Shown: in pieces, positions 11,574-17,797 of the stretch | Position numbering within the stretch: the stretch's first letter is position 1 | Layout: each line of letters starts with the position of its first letter | From: Acidobacteriota bacterium | GTDB taxonomy: Bacteria > Acidobacteriota > Terriglobia > Terriglobales > SCQP01 | DNA length: 34,971 nucleotides | Direction of reading: 5' to 3' | Assembly (NCBI GenBank): GCA_021827785.1 | Contig: JAKAUF010000154.1 | Coordinates: 1-34,971, forward strand | The notes under the pieces: model-generated | Databases searched by the model: none | The model's input: only the letters and a program-made list of their open reading frames with translations | Told to the model about the DNA's origin: nothing | Translations under genes and position numbers: made by a program

Positions 11574-12175
11574 CCCACGCTTCCTCGCCGCCCTGGCGCC
11601 CTGCCGGGAGACGGGCGGGCCGGCGCTGGCGCGGCGGATTGGCTTTGGCCGCGGCCGTGTTGTTGGCCGCCGGCGCGGGAGCCGGCTGCGCGAATCCCAA
11701 TTTCGTCCCTCCCGGCAGCCTGCCGCTGACCGCGGCAGAGCCACGATCGGCCACCGCCACGGCCCAATTCCTGCCCGGCCGATGGCAGGTGGAACACGTG
11801 CAGCAGCCGCCGCAGGCGACCTTTGGCGCCAATTTGATTCAGCAGGCAGCGGAGGTAGCCGATGTAGCCGGTTGGTCGGAGATGGACTTCCAACCGCTCC
11901 CCGCCGGCGCCGGCGTTTCTCATCCCGGCACGGTAGAACTGAGCAGCGGCGCGCATCACGTACGTCTCAGCTATTGGATGGAAGGCAACGTGATGGCCAT
12001 CGCCGCCCGCGCGGAGCGTTTCCTGAGCCATGAGCACTGGCAAGTGTTAGCCGGCCGCAAGTTGCTTCTGCTGCGCTCGATCAGCGATGGCGAGGTGATT
12101 TTATTGCGCCGCCTCGGCCCCAAGGCAGCCCCGCCCCGCCCCACCCCGCCCAATCGCCGCTCGCGCCGCCGCTAG
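11570..12175 (+). CDS. Hypothetical lipoprotein
   Basis: GTG overlaps the rel stop (GTGA). Basic N-region, hydrophobic stretch and AGAGC lipobox-like site. Confidence 0.65.
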   Translation: MTHASSPPWRPAGRRAGRRWRGGLALAAAVLLAAGAGAGCANPNFVPPGSLPLTAAEPRSATATAQFLPGRWQVEHVQQPPQATFGANLIQQAAEVADVAGWSEMDFQPLPAGAGVSHPGTVELSSGAHHVRLSYWMEGNVMAIAARAERFLSHEHWQVLAGRKLLLLRSISDGEVILLRRLGPKAAPPRPTPPNRRSRRR

Positions 12176-12945
12176 GCTACCGCGGAGTCTCGCGCCGCCG
12201 CCTGGCGGTAGCCACCGCGCAGCGCGTACCAGCGGATGCGGACCAGGTCCGCGAACATCCGTCCGCTGTCGCGGAGCAAGCGAATCTTGGCGCCGGGCGC
12301 ATGCGCCCATACCACCGGCACCTCTTGCACCTTCCACCCTTGCAGTTTGGCCAAAAACAGCAGTTCCGGATCGAAGCCCCAGCCCTCGATGCGTTGCAGC
12401 GGAAAGATCCGCGCCGCGGCTTCCTGCCGGAAGAGCTTGAACCCGCACTGCGTATCGCGGAACGGCAAACCCAGCGTCAGCACCACCAGCCGATTGAAAA
12501 ATCGGCCGGCGGATTCGCGAACACGGCTTTGGTGCGCCTGGATCAACTCCGCCTCCGCCCGGCTGCCAATGGCGATATCGGCGCCGGCATCCAGTGCCGC
12601 TCGCAGCTTGGCGAGTTCGCCGATCGGCGCCGAAAGGTCGGCGTCGGTGAACAGCAGGTAACGTCCGCGGGCCGCCAGCATGCCGTGGCGCACGCTGTAG
12701 CCCTTACCCCGATTTCCGGGGTTGGCCAGCACTCGCAAGGGAAACGAGGCGCGGAAGGCGCGGACGGTGGCGGCAGTGGCGTCGCTGGAGCCATCATCCA
12801 CCACGAGCACTTCCACTTCGCCACCATAGCGGCCCAACGCCCGCTGCAACTCCGCCAGCGTGCGCGGCAGGCGCTGCTCCTCGTTGAAGGCAGGGATCAC
12901 AATACTCAGTTCCGGCGCGGGCGACGGAATGGCGGCGGCAGGCAT
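12172..12945 (-). CDS. Glycosyltransferase family 2, polyprenyl/dolichyl-phosphate glucosyltransferase-like
   Basis: SIVIPAFNEE, VVDDGSSD, NRGKG, FTDADLS, DTQCGFKLF, GFDPELL. Confidence 0.9.
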   Translation of the reverse strand: MPAAAIPSPAPELSIVIPAFNEEQRLPRTLAELQRALGRYGGEVEVLVVDDGSSDATAATVRAFRASFPLRVLANPGNRGKGYSVRHGMLAARGRYLLFTDADLSAPIGELAKLRAALDAGADIAIGSRAEAELIQAHQSRVRESAGRFFNRLVVLTLGLPFRDTQCGFKLFRQEAAARIFPLQRIEGWGFDPELLFLAKLQGWKVQEVPVVWAHAPGAKIRLLRDSGRMFADLVRIRWYALRGGYRQAAARDSAVA

Positions 12946-12949
12946 GTTC

Positions 12950-13933
12950 TCAGACGGCGGGCGGCTCAGGCGGCTGCGGTGATTGCCGCAGCATCGCCAG
13001 GTATTCGCCCATGATATGCGGGTCCCACCACCCCTGCTCGGTCTCGGTTGTCAATTGCGCCCGCGCCCGCTCCGCCGGCCATGCGGGCTTGTAGGGCCGC
13101 TCGGTGGTCAGGGCGTCGTAGGCGTCCACCACCTGTAGGATGCGGGCGAGCAAAGGAATGTTCTCCGCTTCCAAGTGGTCAGGGTAGCCACCCCCATTCC
13201 AGTGTTCGTGGTGATGCCGGATAATCGGCAGCACCCGGGCAAGCGACCGCAGCGGCCGGCAAATCTCCTCGCCCGAACTGGGATGCATGCGCATGATCTG
13301 CCATTCCGCTTCCGTCAGCCCGGTCGGCTTGCGCAGGATTACGTCCGGCACGGCGATCTTGCCGATATCGTGCAGCACCCCGCCGCGGCGCAGTGCGACC
13401 ACGTCTTCCTGCGCCAACCCCAAGCGCTGGCCCAGGGCCGCGGCTTGCGTCGCCAGCCGTTGGCAATGTCCCTGGGTATATTTATCCCGCGCTTCCACCC
13501 CAAGCGCCAAGGTAAACAGGACATCCTCGGCGCTTTCCAGCTCATCGGTGTAGCGCTTCAGCTTGATCAAACTGACCACCCGGGCGAATAGCTCGGGGGG
13601 GTCCACCGGCTTGTTGAGGAAGTCGTCGGCGCCGGCCTCGATGCCACGAATCTTCGATTCATGGTCCGTCAAACCGGTGATCAACATCACCGGCACCAAG
13701 CGGGTTCGGCCGTGCTGCTTGATATGGCGGCACATCTCAATGCCGCTCCCGTCGGGCAGAACCACGTCCAGCAGCGCCAGATCCGGCTCCCAGCTTTGGA
13801 ACACTTCCATGCCCTCGCGGCAGGTCGGCGCCATCCGCACCTGGAAACCCCGCAGGCGCAGCATCTCCGCCGTCAATTCCCGTCCCACGTCATCGTCGTC
13901 CACCACCAAAATGCGGGCGCCGGCAATTTCCAC
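12950..13933 (-). CDS. Response regulator with HD-GYP phosphodiesterase domain (RpfG-like)
   Basis: REC domain ILVVDDD...LLDVVLP...DDFLNKP; HD-GYP LHDIGKI, HHEHWNGGGYP, VVDAYDALTTERPYK. Start uncertain; GTG 13933 chosen. Confidence 0.9.
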   Translation of the reverse strand: MEIAGARILVVDDDDVGRELTAEMLRLRGFQVRMAPTCREGMEVFQSWEPDLALLDVVLPDGSGIEMCRHIKQHGRTRLVPVMLITGLTDHESKIRGIEAGADDFLNKPVDPPELFARVVSLIKLKRYTDELESAEDVLFTLALGVEARDKYTQGHCQRLATQAAALGQRLGLAQEDVVALRRGGVLHDIGKIAVPDVILRKPTGLTEAEWQIMRMHPSSGEEICRPLRSLARVLPIIRHHHEHWNGGGYPDHLEAENIPLLARILQVVDAYDALTTERPYKPAWPAERARAQLTTETEQGWWDPHIMGEYLAMLRQSPQPPEPPAV

Positions 13934-14009
13934 GGGCGGGGTCTCGGCGGAAGGAAACGCGGCAGCCAAGATTAGGGCCTCCGGCGGCTCAGGATCAACC
14001 GGGAACGAA

Positions 14010-14309
14010 TCAGCTGGCCAGCGTGGTGCGGCCAGAGTCAGTGAGATGCAAACGACCGGCGCCTGGCCCGGCAGCCGGCTCGGTCCCCGGCCGCGGACCT
14101 GCTTCGCCATCGCCCTCCGGCGCCAACCAACCCCGTTCCAAGGCGGCTTTCAAGGCCGCACGGATCTCCGCTTCCGGGTAGCGCTCCTCATAATGGCCGC
14201 CGGCCACCGTATTGAGGAACATGAACACGGATACATAGTCCAGTCCCTGCGGCGCATGCTCGGCAAGCAACGCCAAGATTTCCCGAATGAGTACCGTGGG
14301 CGGGGGCAA
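14010..14309 (-). CDS. Small hypothetical protein (possible winged-helix-like fold)
   Basis: Fills the gap between the decarboxylase and HD-GYP genes. GGGGAG before a TTG start; ends LHLTDSGR, resembling a wHTH wing. Confidence 0.55.
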   Translation of the reverse strand: MPPPTVLIREILALLAEHAPQGLDYVSVFMFLNTVAGGHYEERYPEAEIRAALKAALERGWLAPEGDGEAGPRPGTEPAAGPGAGRLHLTDSGRTTLAS

Positions 14310-14322
14310 ATCGGCCGTGGCG

Positions 14323-14868
14323 CTACTCCCCGATCAAAATGGCACAGGAAAGAACCGTGGTCCACAACCCCCGCTTGTCTCCCACCGCCGACTGGGTGAC
14401 GTTGAGGGTGCGAACGATCTTGTTGGAAATGCGATAAATCTCCTTCTTTTCGTCCCAAGAGCGGTCCGGATCGAAGTCCACCGCCAGCGTCGTGGCGAGC
14501 ATCTCCGCCGCCAATTCCTCGGCGTATTCCCCGGCCTGCTGCTCGGTTTCACCGAAGGAATGATGCTCGGACAGGTAACCATAGGCATTGCGGTCGGCGG
14601 GCAAGGCCAAGCCAATGGAAGCGGCGATCAGGCGGTGCGGTTCGCGGGTGGAGTTTTCGCTCAGCACGGCGAAAACCACCTCGCCCGGGCTCAGCAGCTT
14701 GAGGCCGGCGGAGCGCGGGATCAGCTTGCACCGCGGGGGGAAAATGCTGGAGACGCGGACCAGGTTACAGGCGGCAATGCCCGCGTCGCGCAGCGCCAAC
14801 TCGAAGCTGGTCAGGCGCTCACGGTGCTTGCCCACGCCTTTGGACAGAAAAATCTGTTTTGCAATCAT
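14323..14868 (-). CDS. pdaD: Pyruvoyl-dependent arginine decarboxylase (PdaD/AaxB family)
   Basis: [14 protein letters not shown], self-cleavage site [27 protein letters not shown]. Confidence 0.9.
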
Positions 14869-14954
14869 TCTGGCTGAGGCCCGCTGCAGGTCCGCGCCCC
14901 ACCCGTGGGCCCTGCGAGGCGGCTAAGGCGGCGGAAAATAGGCGGTAACTTGGA

Positions 14955-14983
14955 AAAGTAGCAAAAGCCGGCGGCAGCGTCAA
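14955..14983 (-). promoter_or_regulatory. sigma70 promoter of pdaD
   Basis: Minus strand TTGACG-17 nt-TACTTT with TG extension (-35 at 14983-14978, -10 at 14960-14955). Confidence 0.7.
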
Positions 14984-15019
14984 TGTGAAATCCTGCCCCC
15001 TTGGCGCCGGCCCTCGCGG

Positions 15020-15295
15020 CTAGGCGCCGCCGGCGATGGAAGGCAGGATCAGCACATCATCGCCGGGCCGGAACTCATACTCCGGGCCGCCCAGAAAACG
15101 AATGTCCTCGTCATTGACGTAGACGTTGAAAAACCGCCGCGGCCGGCCGTCCGCCTCGCAAATCCGCTCGCGCAGCTCGGGAAACCGCGCGGCCAATTCC
15201 GTGATCAGCGCGGGCAGGTTGGCGGCTTGGCAGTCCAGGCTCGCCTGGCCGCCGGTAAATTTTTGCAATGGGGTGGGGATGCGCAAGGTGTACAT
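15020..15295 (-). CDS. MoaD/ThiS/CysO-family ubiquitin-like sulfur carrier protein
   Basis: LRIPTPLQKFTGG, FFNVYVNDEDIRFL, C-terminus LILPSIAGG-A. GGAG RBS. Confidence 0.9.
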   Translation of the reverse strand: MYTLRIPTPLQKFTGGQASLDCQAANLPALITELAARFPELRERICEADGRPRRFFNVYVNDEDIRFLGGPEYEFRPGDDVLILPSIAGGA

Positions 15296-15316
15296 GGAAA
15301 CGTCTCCGGGAGGGGC

Positions 15317-16564
15317 TTAGGCGGTGGCGAGGGCGGGCTCGGAATGGGCGGCGAGCAGCGCCTCCAGATCTTGCAGGCGCGGACGAATGACCGGCGCCGC
15401 CGCCTGGTCGGCGACCACGGCATCCAGGGTCTTCAGGCCGTTGCCGGTCAGCACCAGCACGATCGGGCGGTCCGGATCCAGGCGCCCTTGCGCCAGCAGC
15501 TTTTGCGCGCAGGCAACCGTTACCCCGCCCGCGGTTTCGGCGAAGATGCCCTCGGTCTCCGCCAGCAGCCGCATGGCGGCGACGATCTCTCCATCGCTGG
15601 CGTCTTCGGCCCACCCGCCGCTTTCGCGCACCAGCTTGGCGGCGTAGAAGCCGTCGGCGGGGTTGCCGATCGCCAAGCTGCGGGCAATGGTCTGCGGCCG
15701 CTGCGGTTCAATTTCCCCACGGCCGGATTTCACCGCCGTCGAGATGGGCGAACAGCCGGTAGCCTGGGCGCCGCAAATCGCCGTCTCGCCCCGCGCCCAG
15801 CCCAATTGGCGCAGCTCGCGGAAGGCTTTGGCGATTTTGCCGATCAGCGAACCGCCGGCCATGGGACAGACCAGCGCCGCGGGCAATTCGCCGCCGAGTT
15901 GCTCCGCAATTTCAAAACCCACCGTCTTGGAGCCCTCGGCGTAATAGGAGCGCAAATTGACGTTGACGATTCCCCAGGGAAAGCGCTGTGCGATCTCGGC
16001 GCAGAGCCGGTTCACATGGTCGTAGTTGCCTTCAATCTGGATCAAGTGGGCGCCGTAAATGAGCGTCGCCGCCACCTTGGCGGGCTCCAGACCGGTGGGA
16101 ACGAAGATATAGGCGGGCAGGCCCAGCATCGCCGCTTGCGCCGCGACGGCATTGGCCAGGTTGCCGGTGGAGGAGCAGGCGACGGTCGTGAAGCCAAACT
16201 CCTGGGCCTTGCGCAACGCCACCGCCACCACCCGGTCCTTGAACGAGAGCGTGGGGAAATTGACCGCGTCGTTTTTCAGGAACAAGCGCCGCGCGCCCAG
16301 CGCGCGTCCCAGCCGTGGCGCGGGAATCAGCGGCGTGCCGCCGGTCGGCAGGTTGGCGGGCACGGCGTCCAGCGGCAGCAATTCCCGGTAGCGCCACATG
16401 TCGCGCGGCCGCGAGGCCCATAGCGCCGGACTGGCGGCGCGGCCCACCGCCTCCAGATCGTATTCGATCTCCAGCGGCGCGAAGCACTCATCGCACGCGG
16501 CGATCGGTTGGGGACGAAATTGTTTGCCGCAGTCGCGGCATCGCAAACCGGTTTCAAACGACAT
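15317..16564 (-). CDS. thrC: Threonine synthase-like PLP enzyme (fold type II); probably sulfur-amino-acid synthesis given its context
   Basis: N-terminal CxxC...CxxC, MWRYRELLP, FPTLSFKDR (PLP Lys), CSSTGNLANA, EGSKT, ARSLAIGNP, LTGNGLKT. ATG 16564 with GAGG RBS. Confidence 0.88.
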   Translation of the reverse strand: MSFETGLRCRDCGKQFRPQPIAACDECFAPLEIEYDLEAVGRAASPALWASRPRDMWRYRELLPLDAVPANLPTGGTPLIPAPRLGRALGARRLFLKNDAVNFPTLSFKDRVVAVALRKAQEFGFTTVACSSTGNLANAVAAQAAMLGLPAYIFVPTGLEPAKVAATLIYGAHLIQIEGNYDHVNRLCAEIAQRFPWGIVNVNLRSYYAEGSKTVGFEIAEQLGGELPAALVCPMAGGSLIGKIAKAFRELRQLGWARGETAICGAQATGCSPISTAVKSGRGEIEPQRPQTIARSLAIGNPADGFYAAKLVRESGGWAEDASDGEIVAAMRLLAETEGIFAETAGGVTVACAQKLLAQGRLDPDRPIVLVLTGNGLKTLDAVVADQAAAPVIRPRLQDLEALLAAHSEPALATA

Positions 16565-16635
16565 AGCAGGCCTCTGGCGAATGCTCCGCGCCCGGGAGAC
16601 CGAGAGAGGCTGTGCAAAAGAAGGTGGCAATCAAT

Positions 16636-16663
16636 GAAAAAGCCCCTTCTGTGAGAAGAGGCT
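16636..16663 (-). terminator. Intrinsic terminator of the riboswitch expression platform
   Basis: Minus strand AGCCTCTTCT-CAC-AGAAGGGGCT followed by TTTTC. Confidence 0.85.
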
Positions 16664-16688
16664 GGAAGGAGAACCGACCGCCCCTTGT

Positions 16689-16840
16689 CTCATCTTTCCC
16701 AAGCCAAAACCGCTCAGCGATTTTCTTGGGCAGGAATTGGCACCTTGACGCCCCGCGGTACGCCGTTGTTTGCGGCGCTCCCAGCGAAACCGGTTGCCGT
16801 GGCTTCTACGGGCCTGTTCCCTCAGCCACTCTCGATGATT
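16689..16840 (-). ncRNA. SAM-I (S-box) riboswitch aptamer
   Basis: Minus strand ATCATCGAGAGTGGCTGAGGGAACAGGCCCGTAGAAGCCACGGCAACC...GGTGCCAATTCCTGC...GGAAAGATGAG carries the SAM-I core: AUC..GAG, kink-turn P2, GCAACC, GGUGCxAAUUCC, AGAUGAG. Confidence 0.93.
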
Positions 16841-16891
16841 CAGGGCAGACTCGGCTTGCCAGCCGAGTCCGGATATTCAGTTGTCATACCG

Positions 16892-16920
16892 AATATACGC
16901 CAACCGGGGATTGGGCGCAA
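16892..16920 (-). promoter_or_regulatory. sigma70 promoter of the riboswitch-thrC-moaD unit
   Basis: Minus strand TTGCGC-17 nt-TATATT. Confidence 0.7.
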
Positions 16921-17074
16921 CCAGGCGCAAAGCCGGAATCACCCACCCTCGGCGCGACTGCGCACAGCGGCTGGCGGGAGGCGCCAGTGTCGCGCGCGCG
17001 GCGCCACCCGCGGGACCGGCCCATCCGCGCGGCGCGGGCCCGTCCGGCCCAGCGCCCTTGCTATGCTGCCAATG

Positions 17075-17797
17075 ATGACTCTTTCGACTCCCACCGTGCA
17101 GGTGGTCGCACCCGAGACGTTCGGCGCCACCGCCGCCGAGCATATCGCCGCCACGCTGCGGGTAAAACCGGATGCCGTCCTCGGTCTGCCCACGGGCAAC
17201 ACGCCGGTTCCCGTCTATGCAGCGCTGCTGGCCCGCCGCGACGTGAATTTCTCCCGCGCCCGGGTCGCCATGCTGGATGAATATTTGGGGGCCGGCGACC
17301 GCCCCATCAGCTTTTATCAATGGCTGCGCTCCCACTTTCTGGCCGCCGCCGCGATCGCGCCGGAGCGGATCCTGCGCATGCCATCGGATCCCGAAGGCAT
17401 AGCCGCGGCTTGCGCCGCCTACGATCGCCAACTGGAGCAGTGGGGCGGCTGCGACCTGCAACTGCTCGGCCTAGGCCTAAATGGCCATATCGGCTTCAAC
17501 GAACCCGGCTCTTCGGGCGATTCCGCAACCCGCGTGGTGCCGCTGAGCGCGAGCACCCGCGATGCCAACGAAGAGTATTGGCAGGGCGAGGAGGTGCCCG
17601 AGTTCGGCGTCACCACGGGCATAGGGGTCATTCTCCGCGCCAAACGGATCATCTTGCTGGTGAATGGCGCGCGCAAAGCGGCTACGCTGCGCCAAGCGCT
17701 CGATGGGCCGATCGGCCCAGACTGCCCCGCCAGCTTCCTGCGCCGGCACCGGGATGTGCTGGTGCTGGCGGACCGCGCGGCCGCCGGCCAAGATTAG
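17075..17797 (+). CDS. nagB: Glucosamine-6-phosphate deaminase
   Basis: LGLPTGNTP, MLDEY, LLGLGLNGHIGFNEPG, CPASFL. Start is ATG 17072 or 17075, just after TGcTATGCT. Confidence 0.9.
   Translation: MTLSTPTVQVVAPETFGATAAEHIAATLRVKPDAVLGLPTGNTPVPVYAALLARRDVNFSRARVAMLDEYLGAGDRPISFYQWLRSHFLAAAAIAPERILRMPSDPEGIAAACAAYDRQLEQWGGCDLQLLGLGLNGHIGFNEPGSSGDSATRVVPLSASTRDANEEYWQGEEVPEFGVTTGIGVILRAKRIILLVNGARKAATLRQALDGPIGPDCPASFLRRHRDVLVLADRAAAGQD

Follow-up and report, generated by a model that had tools for sequence, protein, structure and literature searches.

A SAM-I riboswitch, a threonine synthase-like gene and a carrier gene lie in tandem

The window analyzed here is a 34,971-nucleotide stretch of DNA from an Acidobacteriota bacterium of the order Terriglobales (contig JAKAUF010000154.1 of assembly GCA_021827785.1), and its minus strand carries an S-adenosylmethionine (SAM) riboswitch followed by a metM-like and a metO-like gene, a candidate operon for homocysteine synthesis. 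The aptamer belongs to the SAM-I (S-box) class and occupies positions 16687–16841, where it matches the full RF00162 model (1–108) with 73.3 bits against a gathering threshold of 44.4 (E = 1.6e-15), with insertions of 39 nt in one stem-loop and 18 nt in another relative to the Rfam consensus. It is the sole Rfam match in the window and the single RF00162 match across the source genome (3.23 Mb in 456 contigs, 88% complete). The metM-like gene (15317–16564) encodes a 415-residue fold-type-II pyridoxal phosphate (PLP) enzyme of the threonine synthase superfamily; it begins with an ATG at 16564, just preceded by AGAGG, and ends with TAA. Exactly 21 nt separate this stop codon from the ATG of the metO-like gene (15020–15295), and the gap holds a GGAGA ribosome-binding site. 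The metO product is a 91-residue carrier of the ThiS/MoaD/CysO type (PF02597 ThiS, 47.5 bits; cut-off 22.5), whose C terminus reads SIAGGA, a Gly-Gly pair followed by Ala. An original prediction made from the nucleotide sequence had named a complete SAM-I aptamer, a terminator, a ThrC-like PLP enzyme and, 21 bp further on, a carrier of this type, all of which were recovered.

The leader combines the aptamer with a predicted expression platform. A terminator scan located an intrinsic terminator at 16632–16663 on the minus strand, consisting of a 10-bp GC-rich stem with an ACA loop (−14.1 kcal/mol) and then UUUUUCAUU; the hairpin arms span 16663–16641, and TTTTTCATT comes next. The terminator ends approximately 70 nt before the metM start codon. 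Folding with ViennaRNA yielded a predicted antiterminator helix at 16652–16692 (−18.5 kcal/mol, minus strand), in which the terminator's 5′ arm is base-paired instead with the 3′ strand of P1 (GAGAC) and the adjoining AAGGGGC. The two computed structures are mutually exclusive, and the antiterminator helix recurs in the minimum free energy (MFE) fold of the 351-nt leader. This layout is a classical S-box off-switch in thermodynamic prediction: when SAM is scarce, the antiterminator would form and metM–metO would be transcribed, and when SAM is plentiful, P1 would close, the terminator would form and transcription would halt before metM. The promoter that had also been predicted did not hold up, as a consensus scan of the minus strand from 14200 to 17400 returned no sigma-70-like site. 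The only candidate, picked out by eye at approximately 16903–16875 (TTGGCG, 17 nt, CTGAAT), agrees with 8 of 12 consensus positions. Between this weak candidate and P1 lie two further hairpins, a strong 10-bp GC hairpin at 16847–16870 on the minus strand (GGACUCGGCU GGCA AGCCGAGUCU) that abuts the 5′ side of the aptamer, and an AT-rich hairpin at about 16873–16897 that precedes it.

The enzyme forms a clade apart from housekeeping threonine synthases

The metM product matches PF00291 with 247.6 bits and the thrC equivalog model TIGR00260 with 263.8 bits, above the cut-off of 167.1, and annotation pipelines therefore call it thrC. The corresponding scores are 52 bits for the cysteate synthase model TIGR03844 (cut-off 324.9) and 45 bits for the cysteine synthase model. 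The protein has an N-terminal CxxC...CxxC ribbon, and its PLP lysine, K109, lies within an SFKDR motif. Its best matches in the Protein Data Bank are threonine synthases (1UIM, 6CGQ, 2ZSJ and 2D1F; E values from 1e-56 to 3e-45). Every named database relative is titled ‘threonine synthase’, the label that had been expected for it, and the closest are Terriglobales by their database names. The cysteine ribbon was considered as a MetM-specific dock for the carrier and rejected, since it is shared by the ThrC of the same genome and by several ThrC representatives.

The original prediction had pointed to a second thrC in the genome as informative, and one is present. Four genes matched the thrC model, two of them above the cut-off, namely the window gene and a gene on contig C232 (267.6 bits). 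The latter overlaps thrB (TIGR00191, 189.5 bits; cut-off 168.25) and is followed by hom, which encodes homoserine dehydrogenase; no riboswitch was found at this thrC. The window enzyme shares 36–37% identity with this housekeeping ThrC and 36–38% with ThrCs in general, versus 50–53% with Streptomycetaceae proteins.

A phylogeny placed the window enzyme with the riboswitch- and carrier-linked proteins of Streptomyces, apart from the ThrCs, in keeping with the original inference. The first tree (LG+G4, SH-aLRT support) comprised 95 rows: 28 of the 29 acidobacterial orthologues described below (fragment L051 was left out), 22 of 80 actinobacterial proteins, 35 full-length sequences hand-picked from 150 representatives, seven housekeeping ThrCs, two distant outgroups and one extra PALP-family protein. 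In this tree, a 71-row clade with SH-aLRT support of 100 unites the window enzyme with all riboswitch- or carrier-linked proteins, and the ThrC of the same genome and the other ThrCs fall outside it. A more careful tree (LG+C20 PMSF) of 53 of these rows set 35 MetM-like rows on one side of a branch supported at 100/99. The MetM-like clade has twelve alignment positions with a residue that is conserved to at least 90% and rare in the ThrC group, and the window protein has all twelve residues, including L136 (STGN-L motif), N185, R186, R205, Y208, A236 and G347; the position of R205 is occupied by N in 18 of 21 ThrC-group rows, and that of Y208 by R in 12 of 21. Since the groups were drawn from the tree, this comparison is descriptive. 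The PLP lysine and the core motifs are common to ThrCs. Judged by its phylogenetic position and genomic context, the window enzyme is not the housekeeping threonine synthase of this genome.

In acidobacterial genome G028, the MetM-like gene is overlapped at its downstream end by a second, distant open reading frame of the PALP family (L049:128–1741, minus strand), which matches the window enzyme with 115 bits. In the first tree it joins the ThrC of the window genome on a long branch.

Streptomyces loci show the same three-part architecture

A species-genome scan led by a Micromonosporaceae representative with 52% identity to the window enzyme yielded 80 loci from Actinomycetota, among them 31 with Streptomyces in the title. 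An Rfam scan of 20 of the 80 loci, hand-chosen to span taxa, detected a SAM-I riboswitch directly upstream of the orthologue in every case. With a profile built from acidobacterial carriers, a MetO-like gene was found directly downstream at 50 of the 80 loci, including all 31 Streptomyces-titled ones; the 30 loci that lack it belong mostly to Micromonosporaceae and their relatives. The ten Streptomyces-titled loci scanned for both elements have the same order as the window, in which SAM-I is followed by a thrC-like and then a ThiS-like gene. Similar to the window genome, two Streptomyces and two Micromonosporaceae genomes that were searched each contain a separate, shorter ThrC (308–326 bits) besides the metM-like gene.

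A system with these components has been published. According to the papers that cite it, Hasebe et al. 2024 (Appl Environ Microbiol 90:e0124724; PMC11497804) described MetM and MetO of Streptomyces albulus together with Mec and MoeZ. GapMind 2026, which cites that work, describes MetM as a MetO-thiocarboxylate-dependent enzyme that converts O-phosphohomoserine to homocysteine and ‘is often misannotated’ as threonine synthase, and states that MetO maturation needs Mec, with the wording ‘N terminus’ for the site. A 2025 article in mSystems places a SAM riboswitch upstream of S. albulus metM and reports homologues in cyanobacteria, one of which is adjoined by a metO homologue. In PMC12452182, thrC is mentioned solely under T-box control. 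A literature search concerning Acidobacteria or an earlier link between S-box and thrC returned nothing beyond these MetM/MetO papers. The original prediction had cited a ThrC-like enzyme and carrier pair for methionine in Streptomyces, a description that fits the S. albulus system as the later papers present it. Both this precedent and the inference drawn match the published system, and the window operon is, as far as orthology and gene order can tell, an acidobacterial orthologue, with the same three-part architecture, of the system published for S. albulus in 2024.

The carrier extends beyond the Gly-Gly pair

The window MetO shares 40–42.5% identity with the carriers encoded beside Streptomyces metM-like genes. 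The genome encodes a second carrier of the CysO/MetO type on contig C193, and this protein, 36% identical to MetO, shares 37–45% with the same Streptomyces proteins. Similarity to Streptomyces MetO thus failed to tell the two carriers apart, and because both are similarly close, the pairing of MetM with MetO rests on adjacency rather than on sequence.

Forty relatives of MetO, hand-picked from 120 listed, were aligned. The Gly-Gly pair is invariant in all 40, and 37 have 1–7 extra residues after it. Since most of the aligned carriers extend past Gly-Gly, trimming by a JAB protease would be a common requirement among them. The tails vary greatly in aligned relatives of the Terriglobales type (A, C, CC, SR, RA and VGGRAH). 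Among 50 actinobacterial carriers, by contrast with the Gly-Gly-Ala end of the window protein, 35 end at Gly-Gly and 13 at Gly-Gly-Cys, and two have longer tails. Relatives of the carrier bear the database names ‘MoaD/ThiS’ or ‘molybdopterin converting factor’.

A modeled complex brings the carrier tail to clade-specific MetM residues

A complex was modeled from MetM (41-row alignment), PLP and MetO residues 1–90 (40-row alignment). The model scored 0.68, and the best of three controls scored 0.00; in calibration, 58 of the 80 solved complexes reached this mark, as did 2 of the 110 mismatched pairs. Across the runs, contact agreement was at least 79% and the pLDDT of the partner at least 82. 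The modeled interface comprises residues 53–67 and the tail 84–90 of MetO, and residues 11, 22–30, 131, 182–193, 201–205, 237, 284–289 and 299–306 of MetM. The clade-specific N185, R186 and R205 thus fall within the modeled carrier interface. The model supports, but does not show, an arrangement in which the C-terminal tail of the carrier sits against MetM.

The genome encodes the accessory enzymes and retains a canonical route

The remaining components of a thiocarboxylate pathway are encoded outside the window. A cluster on one strand of contig C193 (2243–4265) consists of a JAB/Mec gene fragment (Prok-JAB, 53.9 bits), the second ThiS-like carrier gene and a MoeZ-type ThiF–rhodanese gene. 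The carrier has 98 residues, with Gly-Gly followed by SVAAARC. The 402-residue ThiF–rhodanese protein matches ThiF with 276.7 bits and Rhodanese with 72 bits; its score of 514 bits for the MoeZ model is under the cut-off of 647, and it passes another MoeB model. The contig ends inside the JAB gene and truncates it, so that any cysM upstream lies beyond the visible sequence. A supply of O-phosphohomoserine is accounted for by the homoserine kinase gene thrB beside thrC and hom on C232, and MetH is present in two contig-split pieces (C361 and C383).

Besides these carriers, contig C237 encodes a plain 66-residue ThiS ending in GGG. A MoaD-like open reading frame on contig C304 (14938–15168) runs more than 100 residues past Gly-Gly in frame, which could reflect a fusion of MoaD or a low-complexity tail that was mis-read.

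According to the original prediction, the pair would bypass MetA, MetX, MetB and MetY, and the loss of metA, metX and metY was proposed as a sign of this. In the 88%-complete genome, neither MetX (TIGR01392) nor MetE (PF01717) gave a match, which at this level of completeness is not proof of absence. An HTS-family MetA is present in two pieces (C175:1–703 and C191:1–569), whose contigs share a 231-nt overlap (98.3% identity), which suggests that strain heterogeneity broke the assembly. The contig of the first metA piece also carries a MetY-like sulfhydrylase gene, cut by the contig end and with no carrier there, and the genome has two further genes of the cystathionine synthase family. With MetA and a MetY-like gene retained, the MetM/MetO route is a parallel route here, not a bypass forced by gene loss. 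It is the only homocysteine route seen under SAM-I control in this genome.

Orthologous loci recur in Acidobacteriota and in environmental DNA

A search of 151 Acidobacteriota genomes with the window protein, in a sample that includes the unpublished G049 and G024, gave a bimodal result. In 29 genomes, including the source genome, the match reached 49–100% identity and 389 bits or more; below these, the best match had 38% identity and 234.5 bits. At the 28 other orthologous loci, a riboswitch lies upstream in 11 and a carrier gene downstream in 10. Both occur at three loci, all in the order of the window; eight have only the riboswitch, seven only the carrier gene and ten neither. For two of the 28 loci the sequence downstream is missing, and for two there is hardly any sequence upstream, or none. 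At the 18 loci without an adjacent carrier, one Mec–carrier–MoeZ module could serve both cysteine and methionine synthesis, and with such a shared module, an obligatory removal of the variable residues behind Gly-Gly could act as a checkpoint.

MetX was detected at E ≤ 1e-30 in 43 of the 151 genomes, including four of the 29 holders of the MetM-like gene, three of these four with at least 250 bits. MetA was detected at E ≤ 1e-40 in 12 of the 151 genomes and in none of the 29 holders, with the split MetA of the source genome falling below the threshold. Both acyltransferases are missing at these thresholds from 24 of the 28 other holders versus 72 of the 122 non-holders. It is conceivable, if rather doubtful, that in a sizeable part of Acidobacteriota the O-phosphohomoserine/thiocarboxylate route is the main or only source of homocysteine; the hint is weak because so many non-holders also lack both enzymes and related genomes are not independent.

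Near-identical DNA turns up in sequencing runs from 13 further studies, not counting the possible source study, whose samples came from mine drainage or tailings, soil, the rhizosphere and sediment. In one of two runs examined in detail, a single contig covers the full 3.2-kb stretch with 49 differences; in the other, two contigs cover it with 18 differences. In one metatranscriptome run, which contained 5% of the sequence words, no near-identical contig was found over the coding parts of metM and metO, and two contigs there are diverged and come from other organisms. As contigs reveal neither the level, the ends nor the strand of a transcript, this gives no information on expression of the two genes. 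A 260-nt contig from an RNA library matches positions 16576–16834 with five differences, a region that contains the aptamer and the terminator and stops within the spacer, 12 nt short of the metM start codon; DNA carry-over is possible, and the contig shows neither transcript ends nor level.

Proposed mechanism and alternative explanations

Considering the leader, the phylogeny and the gene context together, we put at about 80% the probability that the window contains a SAM-I-controlled, two-gene metM–metO operon for homocysteine synthesis from O-phosphohomoserine and a protein thiocarboxylate. The enzyme is proposed to be a homocysteine synthase dependent on O-phosphohomoserine and on the carrier thiocarboxylate, with its chemistry assigned through orthology. 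In this mechanism, MetM, a PLP enzyme of threonine synthase descent, would use the O-phosphohomoserine produced by the homoserine kinase of the cell and would add sulfur from the C-terminal thiocarboxylate of MetO, not water, giving homocysteine rather than threonine, and MetH would then methylate homocysteine to methionine. MetO would lose the Ala after Gly-Gly, probably through a JAB/Mec protease, and the trimmed carrier would be adenylated and sulfurated by a MoeZ-type ThiF–rhodanese enzyme; both that enzyme and the protease are encoded on another contig. What the analysis establishes is the gene order, the orthology to the Streptomyces loci, the accessory genes and, computationally, the RNA with its alternative folds and a supported complex model; the substrates, the path of the sulfur, the loss of Ala and the identity of the activating enzyme we infer. 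The interpretation offered in the original prediction is thereby supported overall, with two corrections that concern the promoter and the canonical route.

Several observations weigh against this assignment. Since only 10 of the 28 other acidobacterial loci have an adjacent carrier gene, the carrier link is not universal, and the window MetO is no nearer to the Streptomyces MetO-like proteins than the second carrier of the genome is. The MetM/MetO route is not needed to account for methionine prototrophy here because MetA and the MetY-like gene are kept. The custom alignments and the ligand riding along in the complex model depart from the calibration of the tool. A solved complex of a carrier with a PLP enzyme exists for the related cysteine pathway, and the score may reflect memory of it. 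The metM product may retain threonine synthase activity, given that it passes the thrC equivalog model. The orthology is to non-albulus Streptomyces loci of the same architecture, and the S. albulus sequence lies outside the comparison. The carrier dependence of MetM is taken from the descriptions in two later papers. In mSystems 2025, a cyanobacterial MetM homologue is reported to have threonine synthase and deaminase activities.

The alternative that survives best, though we consider it unlikely, is that the enzyme is an O-phosphohomoserine sulfhydrylase that works with free sulfide or a small thiol, the carrier being dispensable or used otherwise. The 18 acidobacterial and 30 actinobacterial loci without an adjacent carrier gene would be consistent with such an enzyme, as would the failure of Streptomyces MetO similarity to single out one of the two carriers. 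At the carrier-less loci, however, a carrier may be encoded elsewhere. The 21-nt spacing with its own ribosome-binding site points to co-expression of enzyme and carrier, and the adjacency holds at every Streptomyces-titled locus. Furthermore, the complex model sets the carrier tail on residues specific to the MetM-like clade, and GapMind 2026 characterizes MetM as carrier-dependent.

A distinctly less probable alternative is that the product of the pair is cysteine or a different sulfur amino acid, formed by β-replacement on O-phosphoserine with the carrier thiocarboxylate, in CysM/CysO-like fashion on a ThrC scaffold, or by chemistry like that of cysteate synthase. Cysteine genes are also under SAM-I control in some phyla, the carrier on C193 that MetO resembles is of the CysO type, and ThrC homologues include cysteate synthase, for which the metM product gave a weak TIGR03844 match. 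That match, however, is far under its cut-off, the orthologous Streptomyces loci are assigned to homocysteine synthesis, and the genome has, at another site, a separate Mec–carrier–MoeZ cluster of the kind typical for cysteine synthesis.

Least probable of all is a second genuine threonine synthase, tuned by SAM to partition O-phosphohomoserine between threonine and methionine: the equivalog match, the PLP lysine and core motifs shared with ThrCs and the in vitro activity of the cyanobacterial homologue speak for it, but a housekeeping thrC already exists beside thrB and hom, the 100/99 branch and the twelve clade-specific substitutions, R205 and Y208 among them, separate the enzyme from ThrCs, the conserved carrier partner would be left unexplained, and a switch that cut threonine synthesis at high SAM would make little sense as partitioning.

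Relation to known carrier-dependent pathways

The proposed operon resembles the S. albulus-type system of Streptomyces in gene order and in its membership of the same fully supported clade, with 50–53% identity for the enzyme and 40–42.5% for the carrier, and the genome likewise encodes a MoeZ-type activating enzyme and a JAB/Mec protease. It differs in its host, a member of the Terriglobales in the phylum Acidobacteriota, in the Gly-Gly-Ala end of the carrier, and in that its Mec and MoeZ genes are found on a different contig, on either side of a second carrier gene.

Two other pathways employ a carrier thiocarboxylate. In the CysO/CysM/Mec/MoeZ pathway of Mycobacterium tuberculosis, a fold-type-II PLP enzyme whose substrate is a phosphorylated hydroxy-amino acid receives sulfur from the thiocarboxylate of a ThiS-like carrier, which is serviced by a JAMM protease and a ThiF–rhodanese enzyme. 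The genes on C193 are like those of this cysteine pathway. In contrast to CysM, the window enzyme belongs to the ThrC branch rather than to CysK/CysM, and it would act on O-phosphohomoserine by γ-replacement under SAM-riboswitch control. In the HcyS/HcyD/HcyF/MetY system of Wolinella succinogenes, homocysteine receives its sulfur from a carrier thiocarboxylate, and a JAMM protease removes an extra C-terminal Ala. The Gly-Gly-Ala end of the window carrier is similar to that of HcyS. The Wolinella PLP enzyme, however, is a MetY-type sulfhydrylase (Cys_Met_Meta_PP) that uses O-acetylhomoserine, whereas the window enzyme is of the ThrC type and the MetY-like gene of the genome sits on a different contig, where no carrier is encoded. 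With canonical ThrC (TIGR00260), the window enzyme shares the fold, the PLP-lysine motif and the N-terminal cysteine ribbon seen in the ThrC of the same genome; it differs in its separate clade and in its context of riboswitch and carrier in place of hom and thrB.

Acidobacteria are an abundant, mostly uncultured soil phylum. The ‘threonine synthase’ label appears to be a systematic misannotation that would hide a methionine pathway in metabolic reconstructions of this phylum. The window operon reveals no new kind of system; what is new is the acidobacterial occurrence of a known one, since the riboswitch–metM–metO module described in Streptomyces is also found in Terriglobales, in this genome and with all three parts at three of the 28 other loci. 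It offers details that can be tested, namely a Gly-Gly-Ala carrier that would need trimming, modeled interface residues specific to the clade, and a predicted terminator/antiterminator platform of the classical kind.

Genes flanking the operon

Downstream of metO, a long GC-rich hairpin at 14961–15017 on the minus strand, whose 3′ arm runs into UUUUG and then CUACUUUU, is a possible but uncertain terminator; it appears in the MFE fold of the 157-nt spacer between metO and the next gene, argDC, and is absent from the calls of the terminator scan. This gene encodes a pyruvoyl-dependent arginine decarboxylase (14323–14868) and lies on the same strand, 151 nt downstream of metO. It was considered as a member of the operon and rejected on account of the gap, the possible terminator and the lack of recurrence, as no arginine decarboxylase gene was found beside any of 108 related loci within flanks of 1.5–2.5 kb. 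A connection of the decarboxylase with SAM through polyamine synthesis is conceivable. Upstream, the operon is flanked by a nagB-like gene in divergent orientation on the plus strand. On the far side of the decarboxylase gene lies a response regulator gene with an HD-GYP-type (HD_5) domain (12950–14110, minus strand), followed by a gene for a family-2 glycosyltransferase (12172–12945); both are apparently unrelated to the operon.

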